NCBI GenBank assembly: GCA_040773245.1
Contig: JAXGWO010000011.1
Span: 9,227-73,226 of the forward strand
Direction: 5' to 3'
Length of the DNA: 64,000 nt
Origin: PVC group bacterium
Lineage (GTDB): Bacteria; Auribacterota; Erginobacteria; Erginobacterales; Erginobacteraceae
A program made the position numbers and the translations under genes. The notes under the pieces were generated by a model that saw only the letters and a program-made list of their open reading frames with translations, ran no database searches and was not told the DNA's origin. Shown one piece after another: positions 9,762-34,616 of the stretch (position 1 is its first letter; every line of letters begins with the position of its first letter).

Positions 9762-11507
9762 CTATTTGCCCGGGCCGGCCGGCTTGGCGTAGCTGACGGG
9801 CCCCTGCTCGTAGCCGACCTGCTTCAGCCACCAGGCGGGGTAGAAGACCTCCTGGGCCAGGCCTTCCCGGGTGTTCAGGTAGCCGTCGTTGTACTTGTAG
9901 TAGAGCTTGTTGGCCAGTTCCCACCACGCCTCCAGGACGGCGGCGGCGTTCTCTTCGCCGTACCTGGTCAAAAACTCGCGCGCCCCGGCCTGGTCGCCGC
10001 CCTTCCACATCTCCAGAGCCCGGCCTTCCCGATCGGCCTGGGAGCCGAAGGCGGCGGCCTCGAAGCGGTCGCGGACCTGGCGGATGTCCTTGATCATATA
10101 GGAGTACTTGAGCATCGCGTAGTTGGCGACGAAGTTGAAGGCGGTCCACATACTCCCGCGGCTGAACTTGAAGATGTCGGCGGTCTGGACGGAGTCGGGC
10201 AGGGAGGTGGCCCCGGCGTAGAGCGGCATCAGCACGGCGGTGGCCGGGCGGTCGGGACCATACCAGGTCAGGCCGCCGATGGGGGCGGGAAGCCAGGACC
10301 GGGACTGGTTGACGTAGGCGTAAACGCAGCGGTAGATGTTGAGCGGGCGCTCGAAGGCCCCCTCGAGCGGTGAGACCTTGCCCTCCTGGTCGGCCACCGC
10401 CTCGGCCTGCCCCTCGAAGCGGTTGGGACAGCCGAAGGGCCCGGCGGCCAGCCCCACCGTCAGGTCGAACTCGGTGCCCTCGTAGTTGTCGCGGTGAATG
10501 GCGAAGATGTCGGCGGGGGTCAGTTTCTGGTCCGGCTTGATGCTGAACGGGTAGGTCCGGGTGTAGGGGCCCTCGACCCAGGCGGGGAGGTTGAGGGAGG
10601 GGGCGACCAGCGACTGCGCCCGCCAGACCCGCCGCAGCGAGTAGTAGGGATGGTGAAACTCGCCGTTGCCGTACACCGAGGTCCAGTCCAGGGGGCCGTC
10701 CTGGGGCTTCCACCAGCCCTTCTCCTCGGCGACCCGGAAGATGTTCTCCGAGTACATCATATCGGCGGCGTTCTCGCGGACCTCGCGGATGCGGAACTGG
10801 TTGGCAGCGGCGAAGAACCCGTCGTCGGGGACGCGCTGGGCCGCCCAGACGCCGTCGGTGCCGTCCAGGTCATACCCGCACATCTCCATCACCCACCCCT
10901 CCTCGGGGTCGGCCACCAGCAGGGTCTCGCCGGTCCCGTAATAACCGTACCTGGCGATCAGGTCCCCCATCAGCCGGATGGCCTCGCGGGCGGTCCGGCA
11001 CCGCTCCAGGGCCACCCGGGAGAGTTCGGCGGAGTAGAAGATCCGTTTGCCCGGCGCCGGTTCCGGGTGAACCTTGGCCAGGTCGGTGCACTCGCCGATC
11101 GAGAGCTGGTGCTCGTTGATGATGCCGTAGTTGGCGTCGAAGTAAGCGTAGGTGTGCTCGACCTGGGGGATGGAGCCCAGCGGTATGCTGGGGGGATCAC
11201 CCGCGGTATCGTAGCCGGGGGCGAGGTTCTTGGTCACCAGGCGGTGGCCCTCGGTGGCGCCCCACTCCGGCTTGAAGCCCAGGGCGCAGTGCGAATAGAA
11301 GACCGGCCTCAGGCTCCCGGGTTTGTGATCTGCGGCCGGGACGTAGATGATCCGGCCGTCGCCCAACCCGTCATCGGAGTGCGAGACCATCACCGACCCG
11401 TCGGCGGACGCCTCCTTGCCGACCAGAGTGGTGGTGCAGGCCGGCAGGTTAACCGCCCAACCGGCGAATACCAACAGCAGCCCCATTAACGCGCATAATT
11501 TTTTCAT
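9762..11507 (-). CDS. peptidase C69 family dipeptidase (Ntn-hydrolase, N-terminal Cys nucleophile after signal peptide)
   Basis: Real start is ATG 11507, preceded by GGAGGGGAAG. 'MKKLCALMGLLLVFAGWAVNLPA|CTTTLVGKEAS' gives a signal peptide followed directly by the Cys nucleophile typical of C69. The track's extension to 11783 is the duplicated kinase fragment, not part of this gene. Confidence 0.85.
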   Translation of the reverse strand: MKKLCALMGLLLVFAGWAVNLPACTTTLVGKEASADGSVMVSHSDDGLGDGRIIYVPAADHKPGSLRPVFYSHCALGFKPEWGATEGHRLVTKNLAPGYDTAGDPPSIPLGSIPQVEHTYAYFDANYGIINEHQLSIGECTDLAKVHPEPAPGKRIFYSAELSRVALERCRTAREAIRLMGDLIARYGYYGTGETLLVADPEEGWVMEMCGYDLDGTDGVWAAQRVPDDGFFAAANQFRIREVRENAADMMYSENIFRVAEEKGWWKPQDGPLDWTSVYGNGEFHHPYYSLRRVWRAQSLVAPSLNLPAWVEGPYTRTYPFSIKPDQKLTPADIFAIHRDNYEGTEFDLTVGLAAGPFGCPNRFEGQAEAVADQEGKVSPLEGAFERPLNIYRCVYAYVNQSRSWLPAPIGGLTWYGPDRPATAVLMPLYAGATSLPDSVQTADIFKFSRGSMWTAFNFVANYAMLKYSYMIKDIRQVRDRFEAAAFGSQADREGRALEMWKGGDQAGAREFLTRYGEENAAAVLEAWWELANKLYYKYNDGYLNTREGLAQEVFYPAWWLKQVGYEQGPVSYAKPAGPGK

Positions 11508-18599: not shown

Positions 18600-19129
18600 A
18601 CCAGACTATCTCACGCAAGACTTAGGGTTTTGAAGACAGCTCCCACGGACAATTAATTCCGGAACGATAGTCGGGCCTTTGCCCACATACCTATCACGGT
18701 CATTTGGTCCATCTTAAATGTTAGTATGCTCCTTCCGTAGCTTGATGGCAAAACGTTTGTTAATTGCCTCTGGGAGTTCAACAACCGATAGGAAAAAATC
18801 CCGCATAACCCCGAATGAAATCAATTCGGGCTATGCGGGACGTTGGAAAACTCTCCGAACTACACTTCCAGACGAAAATTTCTTCCTGGTGGAATTGACC
18901 TTCACCCATTTGCCCCTATTCTTTGGGCCACTTTTGAGATTAGTGTCAGGAGAGAGATTAACTTCGCCCTACCGCCTACAATAACGACTACAATCGGCTT
19001 GCTTCCGAAAGGGAAATCGGTATAGTTGGAGGTGAATTTTGGCTGCTATTTGGTTACCGTACCAAACGAAGCCGCCAAAGGGGTGCGCAGCGATATTCCA
19101 ATTATTTGCAGTGTAATATCTTATAGATT

Positions 19130-19221
19130 GGAGAGGTGGCAGAGCTGGCTGAATGCGGCGGATTGCTAATCCGTTGTACTGGTGTATGCCGGTACCGAGG
19201 GTTCGAATCCCTCCCTCTCCG
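19130..19221 (+). tRNA. tRNA-Ser (anticodon GCU), type II with long variable arm
   Basis: Acceptor stem GGAGAGG/CCTCTCC. Anticodon stem GCGGA/TCCGT with loop TTGCTAA. Long extra arm. T-arm GGTTCGAATCC. Closely parallels E. coli tRNA-Ser(GCU). CCA is not encoded. A TTTTTTGC-TGC-GCAAAAAA hairpin follows. Confidence 0.85.
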
Positions 19222-19339
19222 TTATTTTTTGCTGCGCAAAAAATAGTGATTGGGGTACCGGATCGGCGAACTGATTCAGCTTCCGGGAACAAGGATCTTG
19301 AGGAGTGGATGGGTGTTCCGTTTTCTATGACCGGGGGTT

Positions 19340-22172: not shown

Positions 22173-23165
22173 ATGACAACTCAATTCTTGGGAAGAAGTC
22201 TGCTCACCCTGCGGGATTACTCCGCCGATGAGATCGAGGCCCTGCTCGATTTTTCGATCGGGCTGAAAGCCGAGAAGGCTTCCGGGAAACGGCCCCGGCG
22301 GCTGGAGGGGAAGAACATCGCCCTGATCTTCGAGAAACCATCCACCCGGACCCGTTGCGCCTTCGTGGTCGCCGCGGTCGACGAGGGGGCCCACCCGGAG
22401 TACCTGGGCAAGGGCGACATCCAGCTGGGGAAGAAGGAAACGGTGAAGGATACCGCCCGGGTCCTCGGCAGGATGTTCGAGGGGATCCAGTTCCGAGGCT
22501 TCCGGCACCGGACCGCCGAGGAGCTGGCGAGCTTCGCCGGGGTCCCGGTCTGGAACGGCCTCACCGACCGGTTCCATCCCACCCAGGCCCTGGCCGACCT
22601 GATGACCGTCCGGGAACGGAAGGGGAAACTGGAGGGAATCGCGCTGGCCTACGTCGGCGACGGGCGGAACAACGTCGCCAACTCCCTGATGCTGGCCGGG
22701 GCGAAGATGGGGATGGATATCCGGATCGTCGCCCCGGAGGAGCTCGTCCCGGGCCGAGAGCTGGTGGTCGAAGCCGGCCGCTCGGCGCAAGACCGGGGAG
22801 GGAAGGTGACCGTCACCGCCGATGTCGCCGCCGGCGTGGCCGGGGCCGAGGTCGTCTACACCGATGTCTGGGCCTCGATGGGGGAGGAGGAATCGATCCG
22901 GGAGCGGATCCGGCTCCTCACCCCCTACCGGGTGGACGGGTCCCTGATGGAGAAGACCGGCCGGGCGGACTGTGTCTTCCTCCACTGTTTACCGTGTTTC
23001 CACAACGCCGATACCGACCTCTCCCGGGAGCACCCGGATATCTGCGAGGCCTCGGAGGAGGTCTTCGAGAGCGGGAACTCGGCGGTCTTCGACCAGGCCG
23101 AGAACCGGATGCACACGATCAAGGCGGTGATGATCGCCACCCTGACCGGGACCTGCGGCCTGTAA
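22173..23165 (+). CDS. argF: ornithine carbamoyltransferase-family enzyme
   Basis: 'PSTRTRCAF' carbamoyl-phosphate-binding STRTR motif. 'HCLP' ornithine-site motif. 'NNVANSLMLAGAKMGMDIRIVAP'. 330 aa, typical of the family. Confidence 0.85.
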   Translation: MTTQFLGRSLLTLRDYSADEIEALLDFSIGLKAEKASGKRPRRLEGKNIALIFEKPSTRTRCAFVVAAVDEGAHPEYLGKGDIQLGKKETVKDTARVLGRMFEGIQFRGFRHRTAEELASFAGVPVWNGLTDRFHPTQALADLMTVRERKGKLEGIALAYVGDGRNNVANSLMLAGAKMGMDIRIVAPEELVPGRELVVEAGRSAQDRGGKVTVTADVAAGVAGAEVVYTDVWASMGEEESIRERIRLLTPYRVDGSLMEKTGRADCVFLHCLPCFHNADTDLSREHPDICEASEEVFESGNSAVFDQAENRMHTIKAVMIATLTGTCGL

Positions 23166-23233: not shown

Positions 23234-23980
23234 ATGATGAAAAGAGCAGGCGCAGGGATTTCCGTACCCGATCTTTCCGGGAAGCGGGCGCTGGTCACCG
23301 GGGGGAACCGGGGGATCGGAAAGGCGATCGCCCTGGCCCTGGCGAGGGCGGGGGCCCGGGTCGCCATCTGCGGGCGGAACGAGGAGACCCTGGCCGGGAC
23401 CGCCGCGCTCCTGGACGGGCTGACCCCGGGCGCCTTCTGGAAGGCGGTCGACGTCCGGCGCGAAGACCGGCAGCTGGCCCTCTTCCAGGAGGTCCGGGAG
23501 CGGTTCGGCGGCCTCGATATCTGCGTCCCCAACGCCGGCGAAGCTACCCTGGCCACCGCCCTGGACACCGGACTGGGAGACTGGAACCGGGACATCGAGA
23601 CCAACCTGACCGGGGTTTTCATCACCTGCCGGGAGGCTCTGCGGATGATGAAGGAGCAGGGTTCCGGATGGATCATCCCCATCGTCAGCCAGGCCGGGAA
23701 GAAGCCCTTCCTCCTCCGGGCGGCTTATTGCGCCTCGAAGTGGGGGGCGCTGGGCTTCACCAAGTGCCTGGCCCTGGAAGCCGCGCAGTACAACGTCCGG
23801 GTGACCGCGGTCTGCCCGGCCAGCGTGGCCACCGACTTCCAGAAGGGCAACCCCCGGGGGACGGACTGGATGATGGAAGCCTCCGACGTGGCCGCCTGCG
23901 TCCTCTACCTCCTGGGGCTCTCGGAGAAGGTCGAGATCGAGGAGATCGTCCTCAAGACCCGCAAGAAATCGGCCGGCTGA
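23234..23980 (+). CDS. SDR-family NAD(P)-dependent oxidoreductase (FabG-like)
   Basis: 'ALVTGGNRGIGKAIA' Rossmann TGxxxGxG motif. 'NAG' motif. Catalytic 'YCASKWG' (YxxxK). Confidence 0.9.
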   Translation: MMKRAGAGISVPDLSGKRALVTGGNRGIGKAIALALARAGARVAICGRNEETLAGTAALLDGLTPGAFWKAVDVRREDRQLALFQEVRERFGGLDICVPNAGEATLATALDTGLGDWNRDIETNLTGVFITCREALRMMKEQGSGWIIPIVSQAGKKPFLLRAAYCASKWGALGFTKCLALEAAQYNVRVTAVCPASVATDFQKGNPRGTDWMMEASDVAACVLYLLGLSEKVEIEEIVLKTRKKSAG

Positions 23981-24195: not shown

Positions 24196-24270
24196 TTGAC
24201 TAATAGGTCATAACCGACTATATGGTCATAATAGACGATATGGTTGATTATGACCATATCGTCATAACAG
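24196..24270 (+). promoter_or_regulatory. promoter (TTGACT-17-TATATG) overlapped by a cluster of TCATAA/TTATGA half-sites forming palindromes (ATATGGTCATAAT ... ATTATGACCATAT), a probable TetR operator
   Basis: Low-GC island immediately upstream of the TetR gene. It contains a 13-bp perfect inverted repeat plus extra direct copies of GGTCATAA. Confidence 0.45.
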
Positions 24271-24279
24271 ACCGGATGG

Positions 24280-25008
24280 TTGGTTTTAGCTCAGCAAGTG
24301 ATGAATCAACAATTAGAGATAGCGGGGATAGTTCCCCAACCCCGGGCCAAGGCCCGGAAAGCGGGCCGTCACAACCGGCGGGCACTGAAGACCAGGGGCA
24401 AGCTATTGGAAGCCGCCCGGACCCTCTTCACCGAGCAGGGTATCGAGCTGACCTCGGTCGACGATATCACCCGCCGGGCCGATGTCGGCAAGGGGACCTT
24501 CTACTACCACTTCACCGACCGCGAAGAGATCATTCGGGAACTGATCGACTGGGTGATCGAACAGCTGCTGGCGGTGATCGACGAGACCTGCCGGGAGTCG
24601 ACCGACCTGAAGACGACCCTGGAAGGACTGATCAAGGCCCACGTCAGCTTCTTCTCCAACCGCTGGCAGGATTTCGTCCTTTTCTTCCAGGGAAGGAGCG
24701 AACTGACCATCGAGCAGAGTTACGAGGGGATCGAGACCCCGTTTCTGAAGTACCTGGAGCGGGTGGAGGAACTTTTGGAGCGGTTCATCTCCGCCAAGCT
24801 TCCCCCGCCGGTGATGCGGAGGATCGCTTGCGCGGTGGTGGGGTTGGTTTCCGGGTACTACTCGTTCGCGGCGATCGAGTCGCTCGACGACTCGGTGGAC
24901 CTGACCTTCGCTTCCCTGAGGGAGGCGATGGTGGCCAGTTTGATGCGGTTCATCCAGGAAGCAAGCATCCAGCCCGGGCCGGAAACGCTTCCGGCCGCCA
25001 CGGGCTGA
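24280..25008 (+). CDS. TetR/AcrR-family transcriptional regulator
   Basis: 'LLEAARTLFTEQGIELTSVDDITRRADVGKGTFYYHF' is the TetR HTH signature. Start may be ATG 24301 (MNQQLE). Confidence 0.85.
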   Translation: MVLAQQVMNQQLEIAGIVPQPRAKARKAGRHNRRALKTRGKLLEAARTLFTEQGIELTSVDDITRRADVGKGTFYYHFTDREEIIRELIDWVIEQLLAVIDETCRESTDLKTTLEGLIKAHVSFFSNRWQDFVLFFQGRSELTIEQSYEGIETPFLKYLERVEELLERFISAKLPPPVMRRIACAVVGLVSGYYSFAAIESLDDSVDLTFASLREAMVASLMRFIQEASIQPGPETLPAATG

Positions 25009-25199
25009 TCGGATATGCGGTAACGCGGCCGGCCCGGGCAATTGCGCCCGGGTTCCGCGATAACCAAAGAGGAGTATAAGATAGAGTGAAAACCACCTGC
25101 GCGGGAGAAAAGATCGCGGGAGGAAAGATCGAGTCGGCGGTATCGGTAGCCCAGCGGTGGCGATCCGGGGGCGCCGAAACAAAACAACTGGCGGGGACG

Positions 25200-25601
25200 A
25201 TGATCAAGCCCGCCCGGGGCCGCGCCCTGAAAGCCCAGGCCGAGAAGAAATCCGCCTGGGGGATCGCGGCCAGCATCGACATCTACAACTGCAACCCCGA
25301 CACCATCCGGGACGCCGAAGCCATCCGGCGGTTCGTCGCCGAGCTCTGCGACCTGATCGAGATGAAGCGGTTCGGCGAAACCCAGGTGGTCCACTTCGGC
25401 GAGGACGAACGGGTGGCCGGGTATTCGATGATCCAGCTGATCGAGACCTCGCTGATCTCGGCTCACTTCGCCAACCAGTCCAACGCCGTCTACCTCGACG
25501 TCTTCAGCTGCAAGCCCTACGACCCCTTCCTGGCGGAGAAGTTCGCCCTCAAGTTCTTCGGGGGGAGCCACTGCATCACCAAGGTCAACTTGAGGATGTA
25601 G
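25200..25601 (+). CDS. S-adenosylmethionine-decarboxylase-like (class 1b, pyruvoyl-dependent) decarboxylase proenzyme homolog
   Basis: 'SAWGIAASIDIYNCN...FGEDERVAGYSMIQLIETSLISAHF...VYLDVFSCKPYDP' parallels B. subtilis SpeH (WGCD..., ISESHLTIHSF, IDVYTCG). The serinolysis motif reads ETS rather than ESH, so processing is uncertain. Track ORF begins further upstream at GTG 25086. Confidence 0.55.
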   Translation: MIKPARGRALKAQAEKKSAWGIAASIDIYNCNPDTIRDAEAIRRFVAELCDLIEMKRFGETQVVHFGEDERVAGYSMIQLIETSLISAHFANQSNAVYLDVFSCKPYDPFLAEKFALKFFGGSHCITKVNLRM

Positions 25602-25604
25602 CCG

Positions 25605-26516
25605 TTGTCTCAGTTCGAGATCATCACTGACCTCGAGCCGGGCCGGAAAATCTGGGAGCGGGTGATACCGCGGGATTCGCTGACCGATCTCTGGGAGGTC
25701 AGGGAGTGCTTCCAGCGGTGTTTCGGGAGGCCGTCCGCCTTTGTCGTCGGCCGGGAGGGGGACGCCATCACCGGTTTTCTTCCCCTGAGCTGGATCGAGG
25801 AAACCGGGCTCTGGGGCTACTTCCCCGGCGAGACCTGGCAGGGGAAGACCTGGCTGGAGGGGAACCGGATCCCCTCCTGTGACCCCGAAGTTCTCGCGGG
25901 GCTGCTCCGCCGACTTCCCGGGCCCGGCAAAATCCGTTATCTCCTTCCCTACCCCGGCGCGGAGGAGATCGACGAGACCGGCTACCTCTTCTTCCCCCCC
26001 GCCTATGATTACCGGTTCGACAACTACCTCGGCGAATTCTCCTCCAAGTCCCGCCGCCGGTTGCGCAAGGAGCTCGACGCCTTCGAGGCAAGGGGGCTGG
26101 AGTTCCGCTACGACCGGCCGGAAGACTTCGAGCTGATCGTGGAGATGAACATCTCCCGTTTCGGGGAGAGTTCGTACTTCGCCGACCCCCGTTTCACGGA
26201 GAGCTTCCGCCTTCTCGCCGGGTTGCTCCGGGAACGGTCCTGGGCGAGGCTGACCACGGTCCTGGTCGAGGGGAGACCGGCGGCCTGCGACCTGGGCGCG
26301 GTTTACAACGGGGTTTACACCCTGCTCGCCGGGGGGACGGCGGGGGAGTACCCGGGGGTGGCCAAGGTGATCAACCTCCACCACATCGAGCGGGCCTGCC
26401 GGGAGAAGCTGAAAATGGTGGATTTCCTCTGCGGCGACTTCTCCTGGAAGACCCTCTTCCACCTTTCCCCCCGACCGCTCTACCTCCTGTCCGCCTCGCC
26501 CCCCGATGAGAACTGA
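25605..26516 (+). CDS. FemAB/CelD-like GNAT-fold acyl/aminoacyl-transferase (Acetyltransf_6 type)
   Basis: 303 aa. The length and bipartite architecture match BioF2/CelD/FemAB-like GNAT proteins. TTG start 4 nt after the preceding gene. No definitive motif, so the call rests on fold-level resemblance. Confidence 0.55.
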   Translation: MSQFEIITDLEPGRKIWERVIPRDSLTDLWEVRECFQRCFGRPSAFVVGREGDAITGFLPLSWIEETGLWGYFPGETWQGKTWLEGNRIPSCDPEVLAGLLRRLPGPGKIRYLLPYPGAEEIDETGYLFFPPAYDYRFDNYLGEFSSKSRRRLRKELDAFEARGLEFRYDRPEDFELIVEMNISRFGESSYFADPRFTESFRLLAGLLRERSWARLTTVLVEGRPAACDLGAVYNGVYTLLAGGTAGEYPGVAKVINLHHIERACREKLKMVDFLCGDFSWKTLFHLSPRPLYLLSASPPDEN

Positions 26517-27771
26517 CCCCGTCCTGGTCGTGGGGACCACGGCCGACTATATCGACCTGATCGAAAGGAAATTCCCCGGCCGGGCTCTCTTCCTGACCGA
26601 CCCGTCCGAGCGGAGAAGGATCGCGGAATACCCCGATCCGGGCCCGGAAGCCGAGGTGCTCTCGGACCTCTCTTTCGGCGAGGCGCGGATCGCTCTCTCC
26701 CGCTGGATGGAAGGGACCGGCCGGCGCCCGTCCGGGGCAGCCTGTTTCGATTGCGAGTCCCTCCTCCTGGCGGCCGAACTGGCCCGTTATCTCGCTCTCC
26801 CCTTCGCCTCCCCGGAAGCGGTCCTCGCCGCCCGCGACAAGCATCGCTCGAAGCTGCTCTGGAGGGAGGCCGGTCTGCCCTGCCCGGCGTCCCGCCTGGT
26901 CCGGGAACCGGAAGAGGCGGTCGAGTTCATTCGGGGCGGCGCGCGACCCGCGGTGATCAAGCCCCTGACCGGGTCGGGGAGCGAGCTGATCTTCACCTGC
27001 CGGCAGGAGAGCGATTGCCGCCGGACCTTCGCCCTCCTCAAGGAGAAGCTGGCCGTTCATCCCAACCGGAGGATGTACGCGGAGCGCCAGGAGACCGACC
27101 CCCGCACCGTCTTCGCCGTCGAGGAACTGGTCGAGGGGGAGGAGTGGAGCTGCGACTTCGCCCTCGACCGGAAGGAGGCGAGGATCATCCGGCTGACCCG
27201 GAAGATCTTCGCCCGGGATCAATCCTTCGGGACGGTCCTCGCCTACCGGCTCTCCCGGGAACTCCCGGCCGGTCTCGACCCCGAGGGTTTCTTGAGCCAG
27301 CTGGAGCGCGCGGGCCGGGCCCTGGGGATCGAGCGGAGTATCTGTATGCTTGACTTCATTGTCGCCGGCGGCCGGGCGAAGATGATCGAACTCACCCCCC
27401 GGCCGGGCGGCGACTGCCTGGTCTCCTTGGCGCGCCTGGGCGGAGGTTTCGAGATGCTCGGCTACGCGCTGGACTTCGCCGCCGGACGGGAGCAGGATCC
27501 GCCGCCGTTCCGGGACTGGGAGGAGCTGGCCGGTCTCCACCTCCTCGCCCCCCGGGGGGGGACGATCCGCCGGGTCGACGCCTCCCGGATCCTGTCCGAT
27601 CCCCGGGTCCGGGAATGCCGTCTCTCCGCCCGCCCGGGGGACCGGGTGGTGCCGCCCCCCGACGACTACGACTCCCGGCGGCTGGGACACGTGATCTTCC
27701 TGCCCCGATCCGGAGACCTGGAGGGGGAATGTCTCGAGCTGTCCGGGAAACTGGAACTGGAGTTCGAGTGA
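26506..27771 (+). CDS. ATP-grasp family carboxylate-amine ligase
   Basis: 'PAVIKPLTGSGSELIF' (Lys/Gly-rich ATP loop). 'VEELVEGEEWSCDFA'. ~420 aa, which is ATP-grasp_4-like. Overlaps neighbouring genes by 11 and 1 nt (operon). Confidence 0.7.
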   Translation: MRTDPVLVVGTTADYIDLIERKFPGRALFLTDPSERRRIAEYPDPGPEAEVLSDLSFGEARIALSRWMEGTGRRPSGAACFDCESLLLAAELARYLALPFASPEAVLAARDKHRSKLLWREAGLPCPASRLVREPEEAVEFIRGGARPAVIKPLTGSGSELIFTCRQESDCRRTFALLKEKLAVHPNRRMYAERQETDPRTVFAVEELVEGEEWSCDFALDRKEARIIRLTRKIFARDQSFGTVLAYRLSRELPAGLDPEGFLSQLERAGRALGIERSICMLDFIVAGGRAKMIELTPRPGGDCLVSLARLGGGFEMLGYALDFAAGREQDPPPFRDWEELAGLHLLAPRGGTIRRVDASRILSDPRVRECRLSARPGDRVVPPPDDYDSRRLGHVIFLPRSGDLEGECLELSGKLELEFE

Positions 27772-29024
27772 TGACGATGAAAGACGCCCCCGCCATACGC
27801 CTGTCTCCGGAGATCCTCCGGAGCTACGTCAAAGGTTTTCTCGCCCGGAAGGAGATTTACCTCCGGGCCGCCGAAGAACACGGGACCCCCCTTTACCTCT
27901 TCGAGCCGGAGATCCTAAAGCGCCGGGCGGCGGAGTTCACCGCCGCCTTCGCCGGAGCCCTTCCCGGGGTCCGGATCTTTTACGCCGTCAAGAGCAACAA
28001 CCACCCCGGTGTCGCCCGGGCCCTGGCCGGCGCGGGGCTGGGGCTCGACGTCTCCTCCGGGGAGGAACTGAAGCTGGCCCTGGAGGCGGGGGCGGAGGAG
28101 ATCGTCTTCAGCGGGCCGGGGAAGACCGGGGACGAACTTGTCCTGGCCTGCGCCCACCGGGACCGGGTTACGGTCCTCCTCGACAGCCCCGGGGAACTGG
28201 ACAAGCTCGACCGGATCGCCGCCGGCGGGGGGTCGGTGCGGGCCGGGATCCGCCTGACCAGCGACGAGCGGGCGCTCTGGGCCAAGTTCGGGATCCCTTT
28301 CTCCGGGCTGCCCGGCTTCTGGCGGCAGGCCGCCTCCCGAAAAAACATCCGCCTTCGCGGCTGCCAGTTCCACACCAGCTGGAACCTCGGCCCGGAAAAC
28401 CACGTCGCCTGCCTGGAGAAGCTCGGCCGGGTCCTGGAGAGGATGGAGGGACGCTTCCGGGAGGAGATTGAGTTCGTCGATATCGGGGGCGGGTTCTGGG
28501 TGGAGGACGGGGAGTTCCTCCACCGGCCCGACGGGGGACAGGTCAACCCCGACAACCGGGAACGCGACCCGCTGGAACATTTTCACCGTCCCGCCCTCCC
28601 CATCAAGGAGTTCGCGGTGGCGATCGGGGCGGCCTTCCGCTCGGAGGTTCTCACCCGGACTGAAGCCCGGCTCTGCCTGGAGCCGGGGCGCTGGATCTGC
28701 CACCCCGCCGTCCAGATCCTGCTCCAGGTCGAGGACAGGAAATCGCCCGACCTGGCGATTACCGACGGGGGGACCAATGCCGTCGGCTGGGAGCGCTACG
28801 AGACCGAGTACTTCCCGGTGATCAACCTCACCCGGCCTTCGCTTGAGGAGTTCCCCTGCCGGGTCCTCGGTTCGCTCTGCACCCCCCACGACGTCTGGGG
28901 GTACTCCTGCCACGGCGAAGATATCCGGCCCGGCGACATTTTGCTGGTCCCCAACCAGGGTGCCTACACCTACAGCCTCCGCCAGCAGTTCATCAAGCCC
29001 CTCCCCTGCGCCGTCTTCCGGTAG
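27771..29024 (+). CDS. PLP-dependent decarboxylase, fold III (Orn/DAP/Arg decarboxylase family)
   Basis: 'YAVKSNNHPGVARALA' contains the PLP-lysine motif. 'GLDVSSGEEL'. 'IGGGF' Gly-rich phosphate loop. Start at ATG 27771 overlaps the ATP-grasp stop (ATGA). The track's upstream extension is rejected. Confidence 0.85.
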   Translation: MTMKDAPAIRLSPEILRSYVKGFLARKEIYLRAAEEHGTPLYLFEPEILKRRAAEFTAAFAGALPGVRIFYAVKSNNHPGVARALAGAGLGLDVSSGEELKLALEAGAEEIVFSGPGKTGDELVLACAHRDRVTVLLDSPGELDKLDRIAAGGGSVRAGIRLTSDERALWAKFGIPFSGLPGFWRQAASRKNIRLRGCQFHTSWNLGPENHVACLEKLGRVLERMEGRFREEIEFVDIGGGFWVEDGEFLHRPDGGQVNPDNRERDPLEHFHRPALPIKEFAVAIGAAFRSEVLTRTEARLCLEPGRWICHPAVQILLQVEDRKSPDLAITDGGTNAVGWERYETEYFPVINLTRPSLEEFPCRVLGSLCTPHDVWGYSCHGEDIRPGDILLVPNQGAYTYSLRQQFIKPLPCAVFR

Positions 29025-29075
29025 CACGGACATTCCTGTCTGGGCGGCCCCGGAACACAGGTGGGAATGCCCGTG

Positions 29076-30077
29076 CTACAGCCGGGACTGCACCCGGGCG
29101 GCGAGGAAGAAGCCGTCGGCGATGTCCAGCCGGTTCTCCGTCCGGTCTTCGCTGTAACTCTTCCCCTCGAAAAAGAAGCGGTCGTAGGCGTAACCTCCGG
29201 CCAGGGACAGCTCGATCCCGGGAGAGACCTCGACGGTGATCCCCGCCTCCAGCCGTTGTTCGTACCAGAAGAGCCGGTGGTCTTTCTCTTCCCGGCCGGC
29301 CCGGTAGTAGCGGTCGTTCTCCCAGCGCCAGTCGGCGAAGACCTTCCAGCCGGATCCCAGCGAATACTCCGAGCCGAAGGAGACCGTGTGGATCGGGAAG
29401 TAGAACCCCCGCAGGCTCAGGCGGCCGGTCGGCTTCCAGTTGATGGAGAGGAGCGGGGCCCCGGCCAGGAGGCTGAAGTCCCGGGAGGGGGCGTAGAGGA
29501 AGGCGGCCCCCGGGATCGGGACGTGGGGGAGGAACTCCCGGTTGGAGGAGTAGTTGAGAAAGAAGATCCAGGCGTTCCGCTCCCCGGAAGGCACCCGGAG
29601 AAATCCGTTGAAGAGGACCGCCGTCTCGTCCCAGCCGGCGAACGGACGGTCGGAAGGGGAGGCGAGGGAGAGCTGGCCGCCGGCGATCCAACCGTTTTCC
29701 AGTCTCCGCCGGTGGACCGCCCCGAAGTTCAGGTCCCAGAGTTCGCCGGGAAAACTCTCCCCGGTCTGCGGGAGGGCCGCCCCGGTCCGGATCGAGCGGA
29801 GCCCGGCCCGGATGGTGGCCGCCCACTCCCGATCCGGTCCTGAATCGAGGGGGAGGGAGATCGAGACTTCCCCCCGGGCATCCTCGAACCCGTTTTCCTG
29901 TTCCCGGACTTCCTCCCGGGGATAGTACTCTCCCGCGGCCGCGACCGAGATTGTCCGCCCGCCGCGCAGCGGCTGAAACCAGCGGGAGAAACCATCCTGC
30001 CCGGCGGCGTTTCCGGCCGCCGCGGCCGCCAGCAGCGATCCCGGGACCAGCCAGCCGATCTTCCCGATGGTAATCAT
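29076..30077 (-). CDS. hypothetical outer-membrane beta-barrel-like secreted protein
   Basis: Real start MITIGKIGWLVPGSLLAAAAAGNAAGQ (signal peptide) lies 333 codons from the stop. The start overlaps the hydrolase stop (ATGA). Amphipathic beta-strand-rich composition. The track ORF's upstream 300 codons overlap the hydrolase gene in another frame and are rejected. Confidence 0.5.
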   Translation of the reverse strand: MITIGKIGWLVPGSLLAAAAAGNAAGQDGFSRWFQPLRGGRTISVAAAGEYYPREEVREQENGFEDARGEVSISLPLDSGPDREWAATIRAGLRSIRTGAALPQTGESFPGELWDLNFGAVHRRRLENGWIAGGQLSLASPSDRPFAGWDETAVLFNGFLRVPSGERNAWIFFLNYSSNREFLPHVPIPGAAFLYAPSRDFSLLAGAPLLSINWKPTGRLSLRGFYFPIHTVSFGSEYSLGSGWKVFADWRWENDRYYRAGREEKDHRLFWYEQRLEAGITVEVSPGIELSLAGGYAYDRFFFEGKSYSEDRTENRLDIADGFFLAARVQSRL

Positions 30078-30862: not shown

Positions 30863-31198
30863 AACCGGTACCCCCGGAAAATTTTCGACAGGATAACAGG
30901 ATCGGCGGGATTAAGGGAAATCCATTTGCCCGGGAATATGCTTGTCCGAAAGGCGGGGTGATGGTAAAAAGAACCATAGTCTCTCCGACTCCGTTCCGCT
31001 AAACCCGCAAGGGCACGCGGCCGGAGCGACAGGGTGCGGCGGGAAACGGCCGCGCCTCCCGCAGTTGGAAAGGAGAAGACGGGGATCGCGGCAAGTATCT
31101 CCCTGTCCGGCTCCTCCCCGCGGGGAGGGGCCGGATTTCTTTGTCGGGGACGCGGGGCGGGCGGCCGCAACAACATTTTCTGAGAGGAGGCAACGGTT

Positions 31199-31870
31199 AT
31201 GCGCAAGATTTTGCTGGCAGCCGGTGTCCTGCTGACCATCCTGGCCATCCTGCCGGCGGCGAAGGCCGGCGACGACTGGGAGTGGTGGTTCACCACGCCG
31301 GTCAGCTACAAGCTGGACCAGGATGTCAAGGTGGACGCCGAGGGGCTCTTCCGCTGGAAGAACGATATGAAGGATATCTACTACCGTTCAGGGATCGCCG
31401 GCGGTTCCTACTCGCTCTGCCCCTGGGTCTCGGTGGGGGCGCACTTCTGGTACAAGGAAGTCCGGAAGGCCAAGGGTTCCCCCTGGGTCTACACCGACAC
31501 CTACGTCGGGAACCTCGACTTTCAGCACCAAGCCGCCGCTTGGCTGGTCCTCAAGGAGAACAACCGGATCGAGTACGACAACGAAATTTACAAATGGACG
31601 CTCCGGGTCAAGCCCCGGCTCGACTTCCCCCTGGCCTGGCTGGGGCTGAAGCCGGTGACGCTCTTCCTGGAAGACGAACTGTTCTTCAAGTTCGAGACCC
31701 CGGGTCAGGACACCTTCTCCGAGAACCGGGTCACGGCGGGCGCCACCGCCAAGGTCCTGGGGCCGTTCGGGGTTACGGTCGCCTACCGCAACGTCGGGAA
31801 GAAGGCCGCCTACGACCAGGAATGGTCCTACACCAACGTCCTGGTCACCTCGGCCCGGCTGTCGTTTTAG
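31199..31870 (+). CDS. outer-membrane beta-barrel protein (DUF2490-like), first gene of the tungstate-uptake operon
   Basis: Signal peptide MRKILLAAGVLLTILAILPAAKA. Alternating aromatic beta-strands. C-terminal '...LVTSARLSF' ends in Phe like OMP barrels. tupA follows 60 nt downstream. Confidence 0.55.
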   Translation: MRKILLAAGVLLTILAILPAAKAGDDWEWWFTTPVSYKLDQDVKVDAEGLFRWKNDMKDIYYRSGIAGGSYSLCPWVSVGAHFWYKEVRKAKGSPWVYTDTYVGNLDFQHQAAAWLVLKENNRIEYDNEIYKWTLRVKPRLDFPLAWLGLKPVTLFLEDELFFKFETPGQDTFSENRVTAGATAKVLGPFGVTVAYRNVGKKAAYDQEWSYTNVLVTSARLSF

Positions 31871-31930
31871 GCCGCCCCGCCGTCTCCGGCGGCCACGGAC
31901 ATCCCAGGCGCTAAGAAAGGAGGAGGCCTT

Positions 31931-32803
31931 ATGAAAAGACTCACAGCTCTTGCGCTCGTCTTCTGCGCCTTGCTCGCCCTCGGCTTCACGGCCGAGGCCT
32001 CGGGGCGGCTGAAATTGGCCACCACCACCAGCACCGAGAACTCCGGGCTGCTCGGAGTGATCCTTCCCCCCTTCGAGCAGGAGACCGGGTTGAAGGTGGA
32101 CGTGATCTCGGTGGGGACGGGGGCGGCGCTCAAGCTCGGCGAGAACGGCGACGCCGACCTGGTCCTGGTCCACGCCCCGGCCCTCGAGGAGGCCTTCGTC
32201 GCGGCCGGCTTCGGGGTCAACCGGCGGGACGTAATGTACAATGACTTCATCATCCTCGGCCCGAAATCCGACCCGGCGGGTGTCCGCGGGGAGAAGGACG
32301 CCGCGGCCGCCCTGGCCAAAATCGCAAAAAAGTCAGCCCCCTTCATCTCCCGGGGCGACAACTCCGGGACTCACGTCAAGGAGCAGGAGCTCTGGCGGGA
32401 TTCGGGGATCCCCCTGGCCGGGGTGAAGAAGCTCCTCAAGGAGCAGGAGATCGACTACCAGTCCCCACAGGGGGAGTGGTACCTCTCGATCGGGCAGGGG
32501 ATGTCGGCGACCCTGCTGATGGCCGACGAGAAGGAAGGCTACTGCCTGGCCGACCGGGGGACCTACCTGGCCTTCCGGGAGAAACTCGGCCTCGAGGTCC
32601 TGGTCGAGGGCGACCCCCGGCTCTTCAACCCCTACGGGGTGATCGCGGTCAACCCCGAGCGCTACCCGGGGGTCGACTACCGGGGGGCGATGGCCCTGAT
32701 CGCCTGGCTGACCTCGGTCGAGGGGCAGAAGATGATCGCCGAGTTCAAAATCGGCGGCCAGCCGCTCTTTATCCCCACGGCGGTGAAACCCCGACAGCCT
32801 TGA
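31931..32803 (+). CDS. tupA: tungstate ABC transporter substrate-binding protein
   Basis: Signal peptide plus the 'KLATTTSTENSGLL' TTTS motif characteristic of TupA. Confidence 0.8.
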   Translation: MKRLTALALVFCALLALGFTAEASGRLKLATTTSTENSGLLGVILPPFEQETGLKVDVISVGTGAALKLGENGDADLVLVHAPALEEAFVAAGFGVNRRDVMYNDFIILGPKSDPAGVRGEKDAAAALAKIAKKSAPFISRGDNSGTHVKEQELWRDSGIPLAGVKKLLKEQEIDYQSPQGEWYLSIGQGMSATLLMADEKEGYCLADRGTYLAFREKLGLEVLVEGDPRLFNPYGVIAVNPERYPGVDYRGAMALIAWLTSVEGQKMIAEFKIGGQPLFIPTAVKPRQP

Positions 32804-32805
32804 TC

Positions 32806-32892
32806 CTCGTACTTCGTACTCGTACTCGTCCGCGTACTCGATAGCCCCTGTAAGCCCGAGTACGAGGACGAGTACGATGTACGAGTACGAGT
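32806..32892. repeat. inverted tandem array of TCGTAC/GTACGA hexamers forming a long imperfect hairpin (REP-like intergenic element, copy 1)
   Basis: Left arm ctcgtacttcgtactcgtactcgtccgcgtactcg, right arm cgagtacgaggacgagtacgatgtacgagtacgag. Shares the 21-mer CGAGTACGAGGACGAGTACGA with the element at 46635..46689. Confidence 0.5.
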
Positions 32893-32904
32893 TAACGAAA
32901 TGAG

Positions 32905-33597
32905 ATGGATTTTCTGATCCAGGGGCTGGTCGGAGCCGGCAGATTGCTGATCGGGTTGAATCCCGAGCTGCTCCGGATCGTCGGGGTCTCGCTGAAAGTC
33001 TCGCTGACCGCGCTTCTCTTCGCCGCCCTGATCGGGGTCCCGCTCGGACTGTTTCTGGCCCTGGGGTCGTTTCCCGGGAAGCGGTTGGCGGTCACGGCGG
33101 TCAATACCCTGATGGGGCTCCCCACCGTGGTGGTGGGGCTGCTCGGCTATTCCTTCCTCTCCCGGCGAGGGCTGCTCGGCGACTTCCGGCTCCTCTACAC
33201 CCCGGCCGCGATGATGATCGGGCAGTTCGTCCTCGCCCTTCCGATCGTCGCCGCCCTCGCCCTGGCCGCGGTCTCGGGGGTGAGCCGACAAGCCACCCGG
33301 GCCGCCCGGGCGCTCGGAGCTTCCACCTTCCAGAAGAACCGGATGATCTTGGGCGAGGCCCGGTTCGCCCTCCTGGCGGCGGTGGTCGCCGGTTTCGGGA
33401 GGATCTTCGCCGAGATCGGGGTCTCGACGATGCTGGGGGGCAATATCCAGGGCTACACCCGGAATATCCCGACGGCGATCGCCTTCGAGACCGGGAAGGG
33501 GGAGTTCGCCCTGGGGCTGGCGCTGGGCCTGGTCCTGCTGGCGATCGCCCTGGGGATCAACCTCGTCCTCCAGTTCTGGCAGGGGAGGGGGGAATGA
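32905..33597 (+). CDS. tupB: tungstate ABC transporter permease
   Basis: 230 aa, 5-6 TM, ABC-permease EAA-like region. Position between tupA and tupC. Confidence 0.8.
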   Translation: MDFLIQGLVGAGRLLIGLNPELLRIVGVSLKVSLTALLFAALIGVPLGLFLALGSFPGKRLAVTAVNTLMGLPTVVVGLLGYSFLSRRGLLGDFRLLYTPAAMMIGQFVLALPIVAALALAAVSGVSRQATRAARALGASTFQKNRMILGEARFALLAAVVAGFGRIFAEIGVSTMLGGNIQGYTRNIPTAIAFETGKGEFALGLALGLVLLAIALGINLVLQFWQGRGE

Positions 33598-34616
33598 ACG
33601 AGGCGGGCCCGCTGATCTCCCTGACCGGCCTCGAACTGCGCTACCCCGCCGGTTTCGTCCTGAGGGCGGAGAGTTTCGTTCTCCGCCCCGGCGAGATCCT
33701 GGCGCTGACCGGGCCCAACGGCTCCGGGAAGACCACGCTGCTGAGCGTGCTCGGCCTTCTGCTCTTCCCCGCCCGGGGCGAGTATGGCTGGCGGGGGCGG
33801 CCGCTCGCCCGTTCCGGTTCCGGACTGACCCGTGTCCGCCGGAAGATAACGCTGGTCGAGCAGAACCCCTACTTCTTCCGGGGGACGGTCGGGGAGAATA
33901 TCGCGGCCGGTCTCAGACTCCGCCGCCGCCCGCGGCGGGAGATCAATGAACTGGTGAAGCGGGCGGCCGAAGCGCTGGGGATCTCCGCCCTCCTGGACCG
34001 CGCTCCGGCCGGCCTCTCCGGCGGGGAGAGGCAGAAGGCCGCCCTGGCCCGGGGGCTGGTCCTGGAGCCCGAGGTCCTGCTCCTCGACGAGCCGACCGCC
34101 AGCGTCGACCGGCCGGCCCTGGAGGCGATCGAGGCGGTGGTGAAGGGCTTCCACCGGGAGCGGTCGGCGGCCGTGGTCTGGGCCACCCACAATCTCCAGC
34201 AGGCCTTCCGGGTCGGGGATTCGGTGATGAGCCTGGTGGACGGGAGGCTTGTGGCGGGGACGCTGGAGAACTTCTTCCCCGGCCGGGTCGAGCGGACCGG
34301 GGGAGAGACGGTGTTCCGGTTCGGTCCGGGGCTGGCGGCGGTGGTCGCCGGGTCGGCCGAGGCCGGCCCCGGGCGGCTCCTGATCCCGCCCGAGGAGATC
34401 GTCCTCTCCCGGGGGCCGCTGAAATCGAGTCTCCGCAACTCCTTCCCCGGCCGGGTCACCGGGATCGCGGAGCGGGGAGGGACGCTCGCGGTCGAGGCGG
34501 ACATTGGGGTAAAGGTGACCGCGGTCATCACCCCGGTTTCTCTGCAAAAACTCGGCCTCTCCATCGGGTCTGAGGTCACGGTCAGCTTCAAGGCGGCCGG
34601 GGCCGCCATCCATTGA
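33594..34616 (+). CDS. tupC: tungstate ABC transporter ATP-binding protein with C-terminal TOBE domain
   Basis: Walker A 'GPNGSGKTT'. ABC signature 'LSGGERQKAALARGL'. Walker B 'LLLDEP'. ~100-aa C-terminal oxyanion-binding TOBE-like extension. Confidence 0.8.
   Translation: MNEAGPLISLTGLELRYPAGFVLRAESFVLRPGEILALTGPNGSGKTTLLSVLGLLLFPARGEYGWRGRPLARSGSGLTRVRRKITLVEQNPYFFRGTVGENIAAGLRLRRRPRREINELVKRAAEALGISALLDRAPAGLSGGERQKAALARGLVLEPEVLLLDEPTASVDRPALEAIEAVVKGFHRERSAAVVWATHNLQQAFRVGDSVMSLVDGRLVAGTLENFFPGRVERTGGETVFRFGPGLAAVVAGSAEAGPGRLLIPPEEIVLSRGPLKSSLRNSFPGRVTGIAERGGTLAVEADIGVKVTAVITPVSLQKLGLSIGSEVTVSFKAAGAAIH

Follow-up and report, generated by a model that had tools for sequence, protein, structure and literature searches.

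What does a compact set of genes make when it combines a pyruvoyl-type decarboxylase, a FemX-like transferase, an ATP-grasp ligase and a second decarboxylase that depends on pyridoxal phosphate (PLP)? The question is raised by a locus in a bacterium of the candidate phylum Auribacterota, of which 64,000 nucleotides (nt) of contig JAXGWO010000011.1, hereafter the window, were analysed. The locus is most likely a five-gene operon, in which a tetR gene precedes a four-enzyme cassette. A sequence-only reading had taken it for a regulator-gated amine/amide biosynthetic module; this core is borne out, as the module is regulator-gated, co-conserved and without an assigned pathway. The best overall explanation is a TetR-gated cassette that makes a conjugate of putrescine and amino acids; this explanation has about an even chance of being right.

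The four enzyme genes are almost certainly a genuine functional module. A relative of the first enzyme gene (gene 1) is found in at least 596 species genomes (one genome per species) from about 15 phyla, nearly all of them metagenome-assembled genomes (MAGs). The best 80 of these formed the locus sample and were searched with the window proteins. The four genes are colinear and lie within 4.6 kb in all 70 loci that are long enough; the ten incomplete loci are at contig ends. The same genes in the same order were also seen in three unrelated contexts examined early. Gene neighbourhoods compared across genomes therefore show strict co-conservation, and the doubt initially raised, that the four genes might not travel together in relatives, is removed.

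The hosts are mostly uncultivated anaerobes. They belong to Zixibacteria, Planctomycetota/Phycisphaerae, Desulfobacterota, Deferribacterota, Lentisphaerota, Omnitrophota, Ignavibacteriales, Krumholzibacteriota, Nitrospirota, Armatimonadota, Hydrogenedentota, Chloroflexota, Sumerlaeota and Eisenbacteria. Among the genomes listed, the closest are Candidatus Auribacterota: Ca. Erginobacter occultus is 91% identical for gene 1 and a MAG 98%. More than 4500 proteins were found as homologues of gene 1, the best 120 of which are 70-98% identical. Across the loci, identity to the window proteins is 66-79% for gene 1 (66-98% over the whole cassette clade), 43-59% for the transferase, 35-52% for the ligase and 45-58% for the PLP decarboxylase; the most divergent transferases (36-37% identity) still stand in the same four-gene arrangement. 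None of the other three genes is present on the 80 viral contigs that served as control, whose SpeDC-like genes are 39-64% identical.

Clustering of the flanking ORFs (open reading frames) of the 80 loci revealed no further recurrent enzyme gene beside the cassette; the module therefore draws on common metabolites. A major facilitator superfamily (MFS) transporter (8 loci) and citrate synthase (6 loci) are occasional neighbours and are too rare to be module partners. On plasmids, tblastn found nothing similar to the transferase. NCBIfam holds no model whose equivalog cutoff is reached by TetR or by any of the four enzymes. The other early doubt, that homologous operons might already be characterised, also proved unfounded: none was found in four curated profile libraries, the PDB or the literature searched. 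The literature searches returned no description of the cassette; their coverage of subscription journals is limited, and this is not proof of absence.

Two natural variants depart from the four-gene arrangement. Firstly, locus L173 (GCA_964617825.1, L173:6001-9575) encodes a 752-residue transferase-ligase fusion (P0363); the PLP decarboxylase gene comes next, and speDC is absent within 6 kb. Farther upstream, on the other strand, this locus encodes a sigma-54 activator that carries a receiver domain. Secondly, a phage-like contig (L176:4253-6933, Logan SRR24319190), recognised as such by a head-maturation protease gene nearby (phrog_207, E 1.5e-47), contains only speDC (with the motif QLIETS) and a transferase gene (40% identical), and neither ligase nor PLP decarboxylase; this pair looks like a two-gene auxiliary module. 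In PHROGs, the cassette proteins matched the SAMDC family only.

In the window, tetR and the four enzyme genes all lie on the forward strand, within 24196-29085 according to the ORF calls. The tetR ORF opens at 24280 and has a probable ATG start at 24301 (24301-25008); a separate gene call likewise gives 235 residues. TetR_N is matched with 57.2 bits in Pfam, and the TetR-family gene reported upstream of the cassette is thus confirmed. The enzyme genes span 25086-29024 and are tightly packed. Gene 1, which matches PF02675 (76.9 bits), ends at 25601 and has two alternative starts, GTG at 25086 (171 residues) and ATG at 25200 (133 residues). The GTG is probably the true start, judging from the AGAGGAG 11 nt upstream and from the retention, at the amino acid level, of the N-terminal extension in close relatives. 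This extension contains a tandem 15-nt direct repeat, CGCGGGAGAAAAGAT / CGCGGGAGGAAAGAT, at 25100-25129 (+), encoding AGEKI/AGGKI; it is kept in close Auribacterota relatives only and is variable elsewhere.

The transferase gene (25605-26516, 303 residues) begins at TTG 25605, the only possible start, in the same frame as gene 1 and with a GAGGA Shine-Dalgarno sequence at 25593-25597. The ligase gene follows at 26506-27771 (421 residues) and the PLP decarboxylase gene at 27771-29024 (417 residues), starting with ATG 27771. The packing overlaps of 4, 11 and 1 nt noted at first are correct for the second and third junctions (26506-26516, and TGATG at 27771); the 4-nt overlap is absent, since the TAG of gene 1 ends at 25601 and the transferase TTG is at 25605, leaving a gap of 3 nt. 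The operon probably ends at a hairpin (29018-29085) between the stop codon of the PLP decarboxylase gene and a convergent downstream gene. It has a folding energy of -37.2 kcal/mol (z = -3.3) and none of 200 shuffles folds equally well. The hairpin lacks a U-run; its role as terminator is putative.

Expression of the cassette appears to be under dedicated control. A putative sigma-70 promoter, assigned from sequence, precedes tetR at 24196-24224 (+), with a -35 box TTGACT (24196-24201), a 17-nt spacer and a -10 box TATATG (24219-24224). A generic promoter scan missed it because its -10 rule wants T at position 6, which here is G. An array of five pseudo-palindromic boxes, GA[CT]-N6-GT[CT], covers 24198-24281 (+); the boxes start at 24198, 24216, 24234, 24252 and 24270 with an exact period of 18 bp, and they overlap the -35 box, the -10 box and the 5' untranslated region of tetR. 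The palindromic operator that had been described over this promoter is therefore present, and is better described as five phased boxes; its 13-bp arms, ATATGGTCATAAT (24220-24232) and ATTATGACCATAT (24247-24259), fall within the array.

This arrangement is conserved with the regulator. In 34 of the 80 loci the cassette is preceded, on its own strand, by an orthologous tetR gene (45-59% identity), and before most of these genes, in other phyla too, a TTGAC -35 box is followed by phased boxes. Well beyond chance, at least two phased boxes are found in 26 of 33 TetR-type loci, as against none of 46 non-TetR loci and none of 1650 shuffles; a shared box core, TGACGATA/TATCGTCA, occurs in 17 of 36 loci. 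One TetR-type locus (L032) has ten phased boxes at the 18-bp period upstream of tetR, compared with two to five elsewhere. TetR is probably an autoregulated repressor that is predicted to act on its own promoter array.

The spacer between tetR and the enzymes, usually about 100 nt and 77 nt in the window, does not contain a phased array; it has no box at all in the window and in 33 of 36 relatives, and a single unphased box in the other three. Since the operator stands only upstream of tetR and never before the enzymes, gating of the four genes would depend on their co-transcription with tetR. The simplest reading is that tetR and the four enzymes share one autoregulated five-gene transcript. 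The spacer holds a GC-rich hairpin (25024-25058, +) of the pattern CGCGG..CCCGGGC-AATTGC-GCCCGGG..CCGCG; it has no U-run and is a possible modulator of read-through. The surrounding 86 nt (25005-25090) fold with -31.2 kcal/mol (z = -2.2).

TetR is not the only regulator of the cassette. A divergent sigma-54 activator (Sigma54_activat, 235 bits) replaces it in 32 of the 80 loci, and a -24/-12 promoter, TGGCA[CT]-N5-xTGC, faces the cassette in 20 of these 32. The same pattern was found neither on the opposite strands nor in any of 34 TetR-type loci, and shuffles gave a mean of 0.16. Thirteen loci have neither regulator. With TetR or a sigma-54 activator as alternative dedicated regulators, the cassette is conditionally expressed, and has been put under such a regulator in at least two ways. 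The proposed TetR gating thus stands for the window, but among relatives TetR is only one of two alternatives.

In the 32 sigma-54 loci (e.g. L057:7545-8001, L058:7323-8001, L067:7464-8001) 350-830 nt separate the activator gene from speDC. Leaders are long, the distance from the -24/-12 promoter to the conserved speDC core downstream being 86-436 nt. The N-terminal ~140 residues of the L057 activator have no match in Pfam. Rfam has no match in the operon region of the window or in nine sigma-54 loci with long leaders; there is therefore no known riboswitch to suggest a ligand.

The first enzyme gives the best indication of what the cassette works on. Gene 1 is likely to encode a SpeDC-type proenzyme which, by its residues, would turn L-ornithine into putrescine. 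SpeDC is a pyruvoyl L-ornithine decarboxylase derived from S-adenosylmethionine decarboxylase (AdoMetDC/SpeD), and its diagnostic residues are Gln, Thr, Phe and Tyr in the central region (Li, Liang, Phillips & Michael, JBC 2023; PMC10407285). All four are present in gene 1 as Q79, T83, F90 and Y98, within QLIETSLISAHFAN..N.VY; these positions were assigned by eye from the text of that paper and the alignment. The 31 family members of gene 1 share the invariant motif G[YF]SMxQLIETSLISAHFANxxNxxYLDVFSCK. The ornithine decarboxylase (ODC) halves of two assayed fusion proteins, from D. phosphitoxidans and Omnitrophica, read ...MKRFGE.QVVHFGEDERV.GFSMTQLIETSLISGHFAN..N.VYLDVFS... (Fig. S5 of PMC10407285), and the gene 1 family motif QLIETSLISAHFAN..N..YLDVFSCK equals that of these halves. 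Gene 1 is 60% and 53% identical to the two assayed ODC domains (E 1e-30 and 3e-44, from Fig. S5 sequences that were machine-read and contain errors) and shares with them the motif QLIETSLIS.HFAN...Y.D.FS.

The catalytic residues agree with this assignment. In T. maritima SpeD, Ser63 (the pyruvoyl precursor), His68 and Cys83 are essential for processing and catalysis; in the D. phosphitoxidans fusion protein, the S229A substitution in the ODC motif abolished ornithine decarboxylase activity (PMC10407285). A profile-sequence alignment with hhalign, in which the T. maritima sequence had first been verified against 1TLU, aligns Ser84, His89 and Cys104 of gene 1 (133-residue numbering) with these three residues. 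All three are invariant in the 31 family members. Self-cleavage is predicted between Thr and Ser, with the Ser codon at 25449-25451.

The sequence-only reading had recognised the AdoMetDC-like fold of gene 1, which holds, and had regarded the triplet ETS as an anomaly of SpeH, which does not: ETS is the SpeDC signature (PMC10407285). Since this signature is diagnostic, the first step is probably the conversion of ornithine to putrescine. A bona fide AdoMetDC (SpeD/SpeH) can be rejected, as gene 1 scores 26.5 bits against TIGR03330 (SAM_DCase_Bsu; cutoff 75.65) and its predicted cleavage site is Thr-Ser rather than Glu-Ser. Sequence and family-profile searches of the PDB with gene 1 matched no solved AdoMetDC, and no speE-like gene is conserved near the cassette in the 80 neighbourhoods.

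The other decarboxylase closes the cassette. It is a fold-III PLP enzyme (Orn_Arg_deC_N, 95 bits; Orn_DAP_Arg_deC, 29.6 bits) that derives from diaminopimelate (DAP) decarboxylase. Its match to lysA (TIGR01048) is 153 bits (cutoff 297.9), and its best match in the PDB is the DAP decarboxylase 2p3e (91 bits); further full-length matches are BtrK (74 bits) and N-citrylornithine decarboxylase (42 bits). The Schiff-base Lys74 in YAVK is kept, as are DIGGG, EPGR and GAY/AGAY-type motifs, and the family has the motifs GWER, SLCTPHD.WG and NQGAY. The segments LIRPSIY and CETGD of 2p3e are replaced by VGWERYE and CTPHD, and the replacements are invariant in 71 family members. In DAP decarboxylases, the Arg and Tyr of RP..Y and the Glu of CE[ST] bind the distal end of DAP. 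With these residues replaced, the substrate is, by this comparison, not DAP, and an assignment as LysA, for which the TIGR01048 cutoff is also not reached, was rejected.

Both decarboxylase chemistries require a free alpha-amino-acid head. Only two kinds of substrate are therefore open to the PLP enzyme, a free amino acid and a residue linked via its side chain or far end. Substrates of the second kind are used by carboxyspermidine decarboxylase, by FslC (N-citrylornithine) and by BtrK (a gamma-glutamyl-acyl carrier protein).

These relatives bear on an alternative explanation, namely that the cassette SpeDC clade has moved off free L-ornithine and that either it or the PLP enzyme decarboxylates a pre-conjugated or different amino acid. 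The amine core would then not simply be putrescine made first. BtrK and N-citrylornithine decarboxylase, fold-III enzymes that act on conjugates, are among the PDB matches of the PLP enzyme, and one locus (L173) has no adjacent speDC. The cassette SpeDC proteins also form a tight clade of their own (66-98% identity, compared with 39-64% for viral and 53-60% for assayed proteins), in a family that has already switched substrate several times (PMC10407285). However, the four ODC-diagnostic residues and the whole central motif are identical to those of the assayed ornithine decarboxylases, and the phage pair of speDC and transferase genes argues that gene 1 works without the ligase. Such a shift of substrate is rather unlikely, and putrescine made from free ornithine is retained as the first intermediate.

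The transferase is probably, to judge from its modelled structure, an N-acyltransferase that depends on aminoacyl-tRNA (or on acyl-CoA). Pfam places it in Acetyltransf_6 (PF13480, 90.2 bits); PF02388 (FemAB) was not matched, PF04339 (FemAB_like) reached only 15.8 bits, below its cutoff, and no NCBIfam model was matched, the PEP-CTERM FemAB model included. The family is small, with 454 clusters at E<=1e-3 and 46 at E<=1e-30 among 1.84 billion representatives. The AlphaFold2 (AF2) model has a predicted local distance difference test (pLDDT) score of 91.8 and shows the double-GNAT fold shared with FemABX-type enzymes. In a Foldseek search of the PDB, its best matches are Sbb17/Sba18 (E 1e-12, template modelling (TM) score 0.60-0.66), in structures solved with streptothrisamine bound, followed by Weissella FemX and then by the alanyl- and lysyl-phosphatidylglycerol synthases (A-PGS/MprF). 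Every one of the first eight to nine matches depends on aminoacyl-tRNA. This class consists of double-GNAT proteins with a catalytic C-terminal Lys, such as K305 in FemX and K329 in DhpH-C (PMC12945691). Lys282 of the transferase, in DFSWK, is invariant across the family and is a candidate counterpart of these residues.

A sister family of the transferase (25-33% identical and of the same length) is found on marine TARA contigs (L170-L172). There it is accompanied by two Acetyltransf_6 paralogues and an LPG_synthase_C-like gene (in L170, the genes lie at 6001-6942, 8488-9375 and 10124-11083), with no decarboxylase and no ATP-grasp gene.

The donor could instead be an acyl-CoA throughout, with an N-acetyl- or N-acyl-putrescine then extended by the ligase and the second decarboxylase, and no aminoacyl-tRNA involved. 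The Pfam family, the public annotation as "GNAT family N-acetyltransferase", and the presence of VipF, the clavulanate tandem GNAT and glucosamine N-acetyltransferase among the significant structural matches are all consistent with this. Yet the CoA-dependent tandem GNATs score lower (TM 0.42-0.55) than the eight to nine aminoacyl-tRNA-dependent enzymes at the top, which also have the better E-values, and a C-terminal Lys, a candidate for the one typical of FemX-type catalysis, is invariant. A purely CoA-dependent transferase is thus unlikely, and aminoacyl-tRNA is preferred as the donor.

The third enzyme appears from its model to be an ATP-grasp enzyme of the L-amino-acid-ligase (LAL) type. 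It matches ATP-grasp_4 (48.6 bits) and has the LAL-specific C-terminal domain LAL_C2 (33.8 bits, cutoff 29.4). Its AF2 model (pLDDT 92.1) is nearest in Foldseek to BL00235 (TM 0.77-0.82), RizA and BacD; in the PDB, the family profile matches 4dim and BL00235 (the latter at 5e-14). The best sequence matches to its ATP-binding part are LysX/ArgX. An amine nucleophile, as used by HsvC, would by analogy be equally compatible with such a ligase as the formation of an alpha-dipeptide.

Another alternative, with which the matches to LysX/ArgX agree, is that the cassette decorates a macromolecule, for example a meso-DAP peptidoglycan precursor, a lipid or a LysW-type carrier protein. FemX and MprF, which resemble the transferase in structure, have cell-envelope precursors as substrates, and the PLP enzyme derives from DAP decarboxylase. 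In addition, 8 of 86 loci encode LysW-like, acidic-tailed Zn-ribbon proteins after the cassette, and there is one weak Zn_ribbon_LysW match. However, the window has no such Zn-ribbon ORF, and the C-termini of those found are not conserved. The fold of the ligase is that of an L-amino-acid ligase (TM 0.8) and not of LysX/RimK; Pfam reveals only soluble catalytic domains in the four proteins; and no cell-wall, lipid or glycosyltransferase gene is co-conserved. Conditional expression from TetR- or sigma-54-controlled promoters would also be unusual for envelope synthesis. Modification of a macromolecule is therefore distinctly unlikely, and a small-molecule product is favoured.

The Zn-ribbon proteins (CPRCGS...C.[ED]C, with long acidic C-terminal tails) are encoded downstream of the cassette, sometimes after an MFS gene, and mostly in Zixibacteria and Ignavibacteria. 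They are located at L033:12058-12270, L044:12101-12334, L061:11997-12224, L082:8779-9018, L036:13459-13704, L046:14713-14928, L054:7335-7520 and L073:6131-6355. The ORF with the weak Pfam match to Zn_ribbon_LysW (L175:1357-1524) lies upstream of its cassette.

Membership of the exosortase/PEP-CTERM set of FemAB and decarboxylase genes, with exopolysaccharide as the target, is highly improbable: a likeness to that trio had been noted from sequence, and the PLP decarboxylase gives a sub-threshold match to TIGR03099, but this match (99.8 bits, cutoff 478) is weaker than that to lysA, the curated models reject both decarboxylase and transferase, and no exosortase, PEP-CTERM or polysaccharide gene recurs in the 80 neighbourhoods. 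A role in anti-phage defence was dropped, as PADLOC returned no match for any of the five proteins.

Taken together, the enzymes would fit the following scheme. TetR bound to the phased array would keep the cassette off until a ligand releases the repressor. The SpeDC-type proenzyme would then cleave itself at Thr|Ser, form its pyruvoyl cofactor and decarboxylate L-ornithine to putrescine. The FemX/Sba18-like enzyme would acylate an amino group of putrescine, most likely from aminoacyl-tRNA, and the ATP-grasp ligase would add a second amino acid through an acyl-phosphate intermediate. Finally, the PLP enzyme would remove the alpha-carboxylate of a residue with a free alpha-amino-acid head; this residue would be acidic or diamino-dicarboxylic (Glu, Asp or DAP-like) and joined via its side chain or far end. 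What results would be a small pseudopeptide of putrescine and amino acids, cationic and held together by amide bonds, a "peptidic polyamine". Chances are about equal that the product is, or is not, an amide-linked conjugate of this kind. The transferase-ligase fusion, the phage pair and the constant gene order suggest that the SpeDC decarboxylase is followed by the transferase, then the ligase and then the PLP decarboxylase; the exact order of steps proposed here is tentative and more doubtful than the product class.

A number of points weigh against this explanation. The transferase is only 18-20% identical to Sbb17/Sba18, with a TM score of about 0.6, and sequence and profile searches of the PDB found no solved relative of it, so that the fold search alone was informative. 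Acetyl-CoA-dependent tandem GNATs are among its matches, and a G-x-A element follows its fourth strand; an acyl-CoA donor is possible. The assayed SpeDC enzymes are encoded in polyamine clusters of the classical type (speE, casdh/casdc, hss) and the cassette enzyme is assigned by homology to them; its clade (66-98% identical to the window protein) could have changed substrate, for example to side-chain-conjugated ornithine. L-amino-acid ligases normally activate the alpha-carboxylate. This would leave nothing for the PLP decarboxylase to remove, unless the residue is dicarboxylic or the decarboxylase acts on a free amino acid. Only one case each is known of the fusion and of the phage pair, and no dedicated exporter is conserved (MFS genes occur in only 8 loci). 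Lastly, co-transcription of tetR with the enzymes is deduced from the operator position, and a hairpin sits in the spacer.

Several other features lie near the operon. The sequence-only reading placed an ornithine carbamoyltransferase (OTC) and an SDR reductase immediately upstream. Both genes are present: a bona fide OTC (TIGR00658, 397 bits, cutoff 281) at 22173-23165 (+) and the SDR gene at 23234-23980. Membership of the pathway was rejected, as among the other loci they are found beside the cassette only in the nearest relative, L008. The OTC gene stands 2 kb before an operon for which ornithine is a probable substrate; this proximity is confined to the window and L008 and may be coincidental. 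Downstream, a molybdenum/tungsten cofactor (Moco) riboswitch at 30971-31091 (+; 69 bits, gathering score 36) directly precedes a DUF2490 gene and an ATP-binding cassette (ABC) transporter with a periplasmic binding protein and a TOBE-domain ATPase (31199-34616). The transporter is probably a molybdate or tungstate importer. A tRNA-Ser(GCU) gene is located at 19129-19222 (+), where spurious ORFs are listed across both strands.

Most of polyamine metabolism is regarded as mapped, yet SpeDC became known as recently as 2023, as another route to putrescine for spermidine or homospermidine. The tie of a SpeDC clade to two different amide-forming enzymes and one more decarboxylase suggests that an inducible metabolite derived from putrescine is widespread. 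Identification of the product would add a branch to bacterial polyamine chemistry and explain why some phages carry speDC with the transferase gene. It is possible, if speculative, that the cassette makes a new class of aminoacyl- or peptidyl-putrescines with one amide drawn from aminoacyl-tRNA, on demand in about 15 phyla and in shortened form in some phages. If true, this would be the first tRNA-dependent aminoacylation of a polyamine, and would imply a general physiological role not previously recognised. For synthetic biology, the locus would supply a compact four-gene pathway (about 3.9 kb) and a well-defined TetR/operator pair.

Each enzyme has characterised relatives from which the cassette differs in a definite way. 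Published SpeDC enzymes share with gene 1 the AdoMet_dc fold, the Ser/His/Cys triad and the Gln/Thr/Phe/Tyr signature (QLIETS..HF....Y), at 53-60% identity in the ODC domains. Their genes lie beside speD/speE, casdh/casdc or hss and serve spermidine or homospermidine synthesis; gene 1, in contrast, is in fixed linkage with the other three cassette genes, a four-gene context of which the SpeDC study makes no mention (PMC10407285). LysA and the TIGR03099 decarboxylase have the same fold-III scaffold, PLP lysine, EPGR and DIGGG as the PLP enzyme, which falls below both curated cutoffs and has the distal DAP residues replaced.

The transferase shares its double-GNAT fold with Orf11, Sba18 and Sbb17 (of BD-12 and glycylthricin), FemX, VlmA, DhpH-C and PacB, and its conserved C-terminal Lys may correspond to theirs; peptide synthases of the Orf11/Sba18/Sbb17 type aminoacylate the primary amine of a small molecule (PMC12945691). 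Unlike the members of the Orf11/Sba18/FemX class, it stands apart in sequence, at 18-20% identity and with no sequence-level match to solved members.

Two systems resemble the cassette in the enzymes that they combine. In BtrJ/BtrK (butirosin) and in FslC/SbnH-type systems, an ATP-dependent ligase is paired with a fold-III PLP decarboxylase that acts on a side-chain-tethered amino acid. The cassette has the same pairing, and its PLP enzyme matches BtrK (74 bits) and N-citrylornithine decarboxylase (42 bits) over the full length. It has neither an acyl carrier protein nor an NRPS-independent siderophore (NIS) synthetase, where NRPS denotes nonribosomal peptide synthetase, and the similarity of its PLP enzyme to the BtrK/FslC type is no higher than to ordinary DAP decarboxylases.

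The phevamine cluster hsvABC of Pseudomonas syringae likewise yields an amino-acid-polyamine conjugate without an NRPS, and its ATP-grasp ligases form amide bonds to polyamine amines, adding Val and Phe. It consists of an amidinotransferase and two ATP-grasp enzymes and uses host spermidine (PMC6187163). The cassette, in contrast, has one ATP-grasp enzyme and no amidinotransferase, brings its own ornithine decarboxylase together with a FemX-like transferase and a PLP decarboxylase, and occurs in other organisms; the resemblance is mechanistic only and the cassette is not a member of this cluster family. The enzyme families are thus all known, and NRPS-independent conjugation of amino acids to polyamines has precedent; the new elements are the gene combination, its breadth, its regulators and the presumed product.

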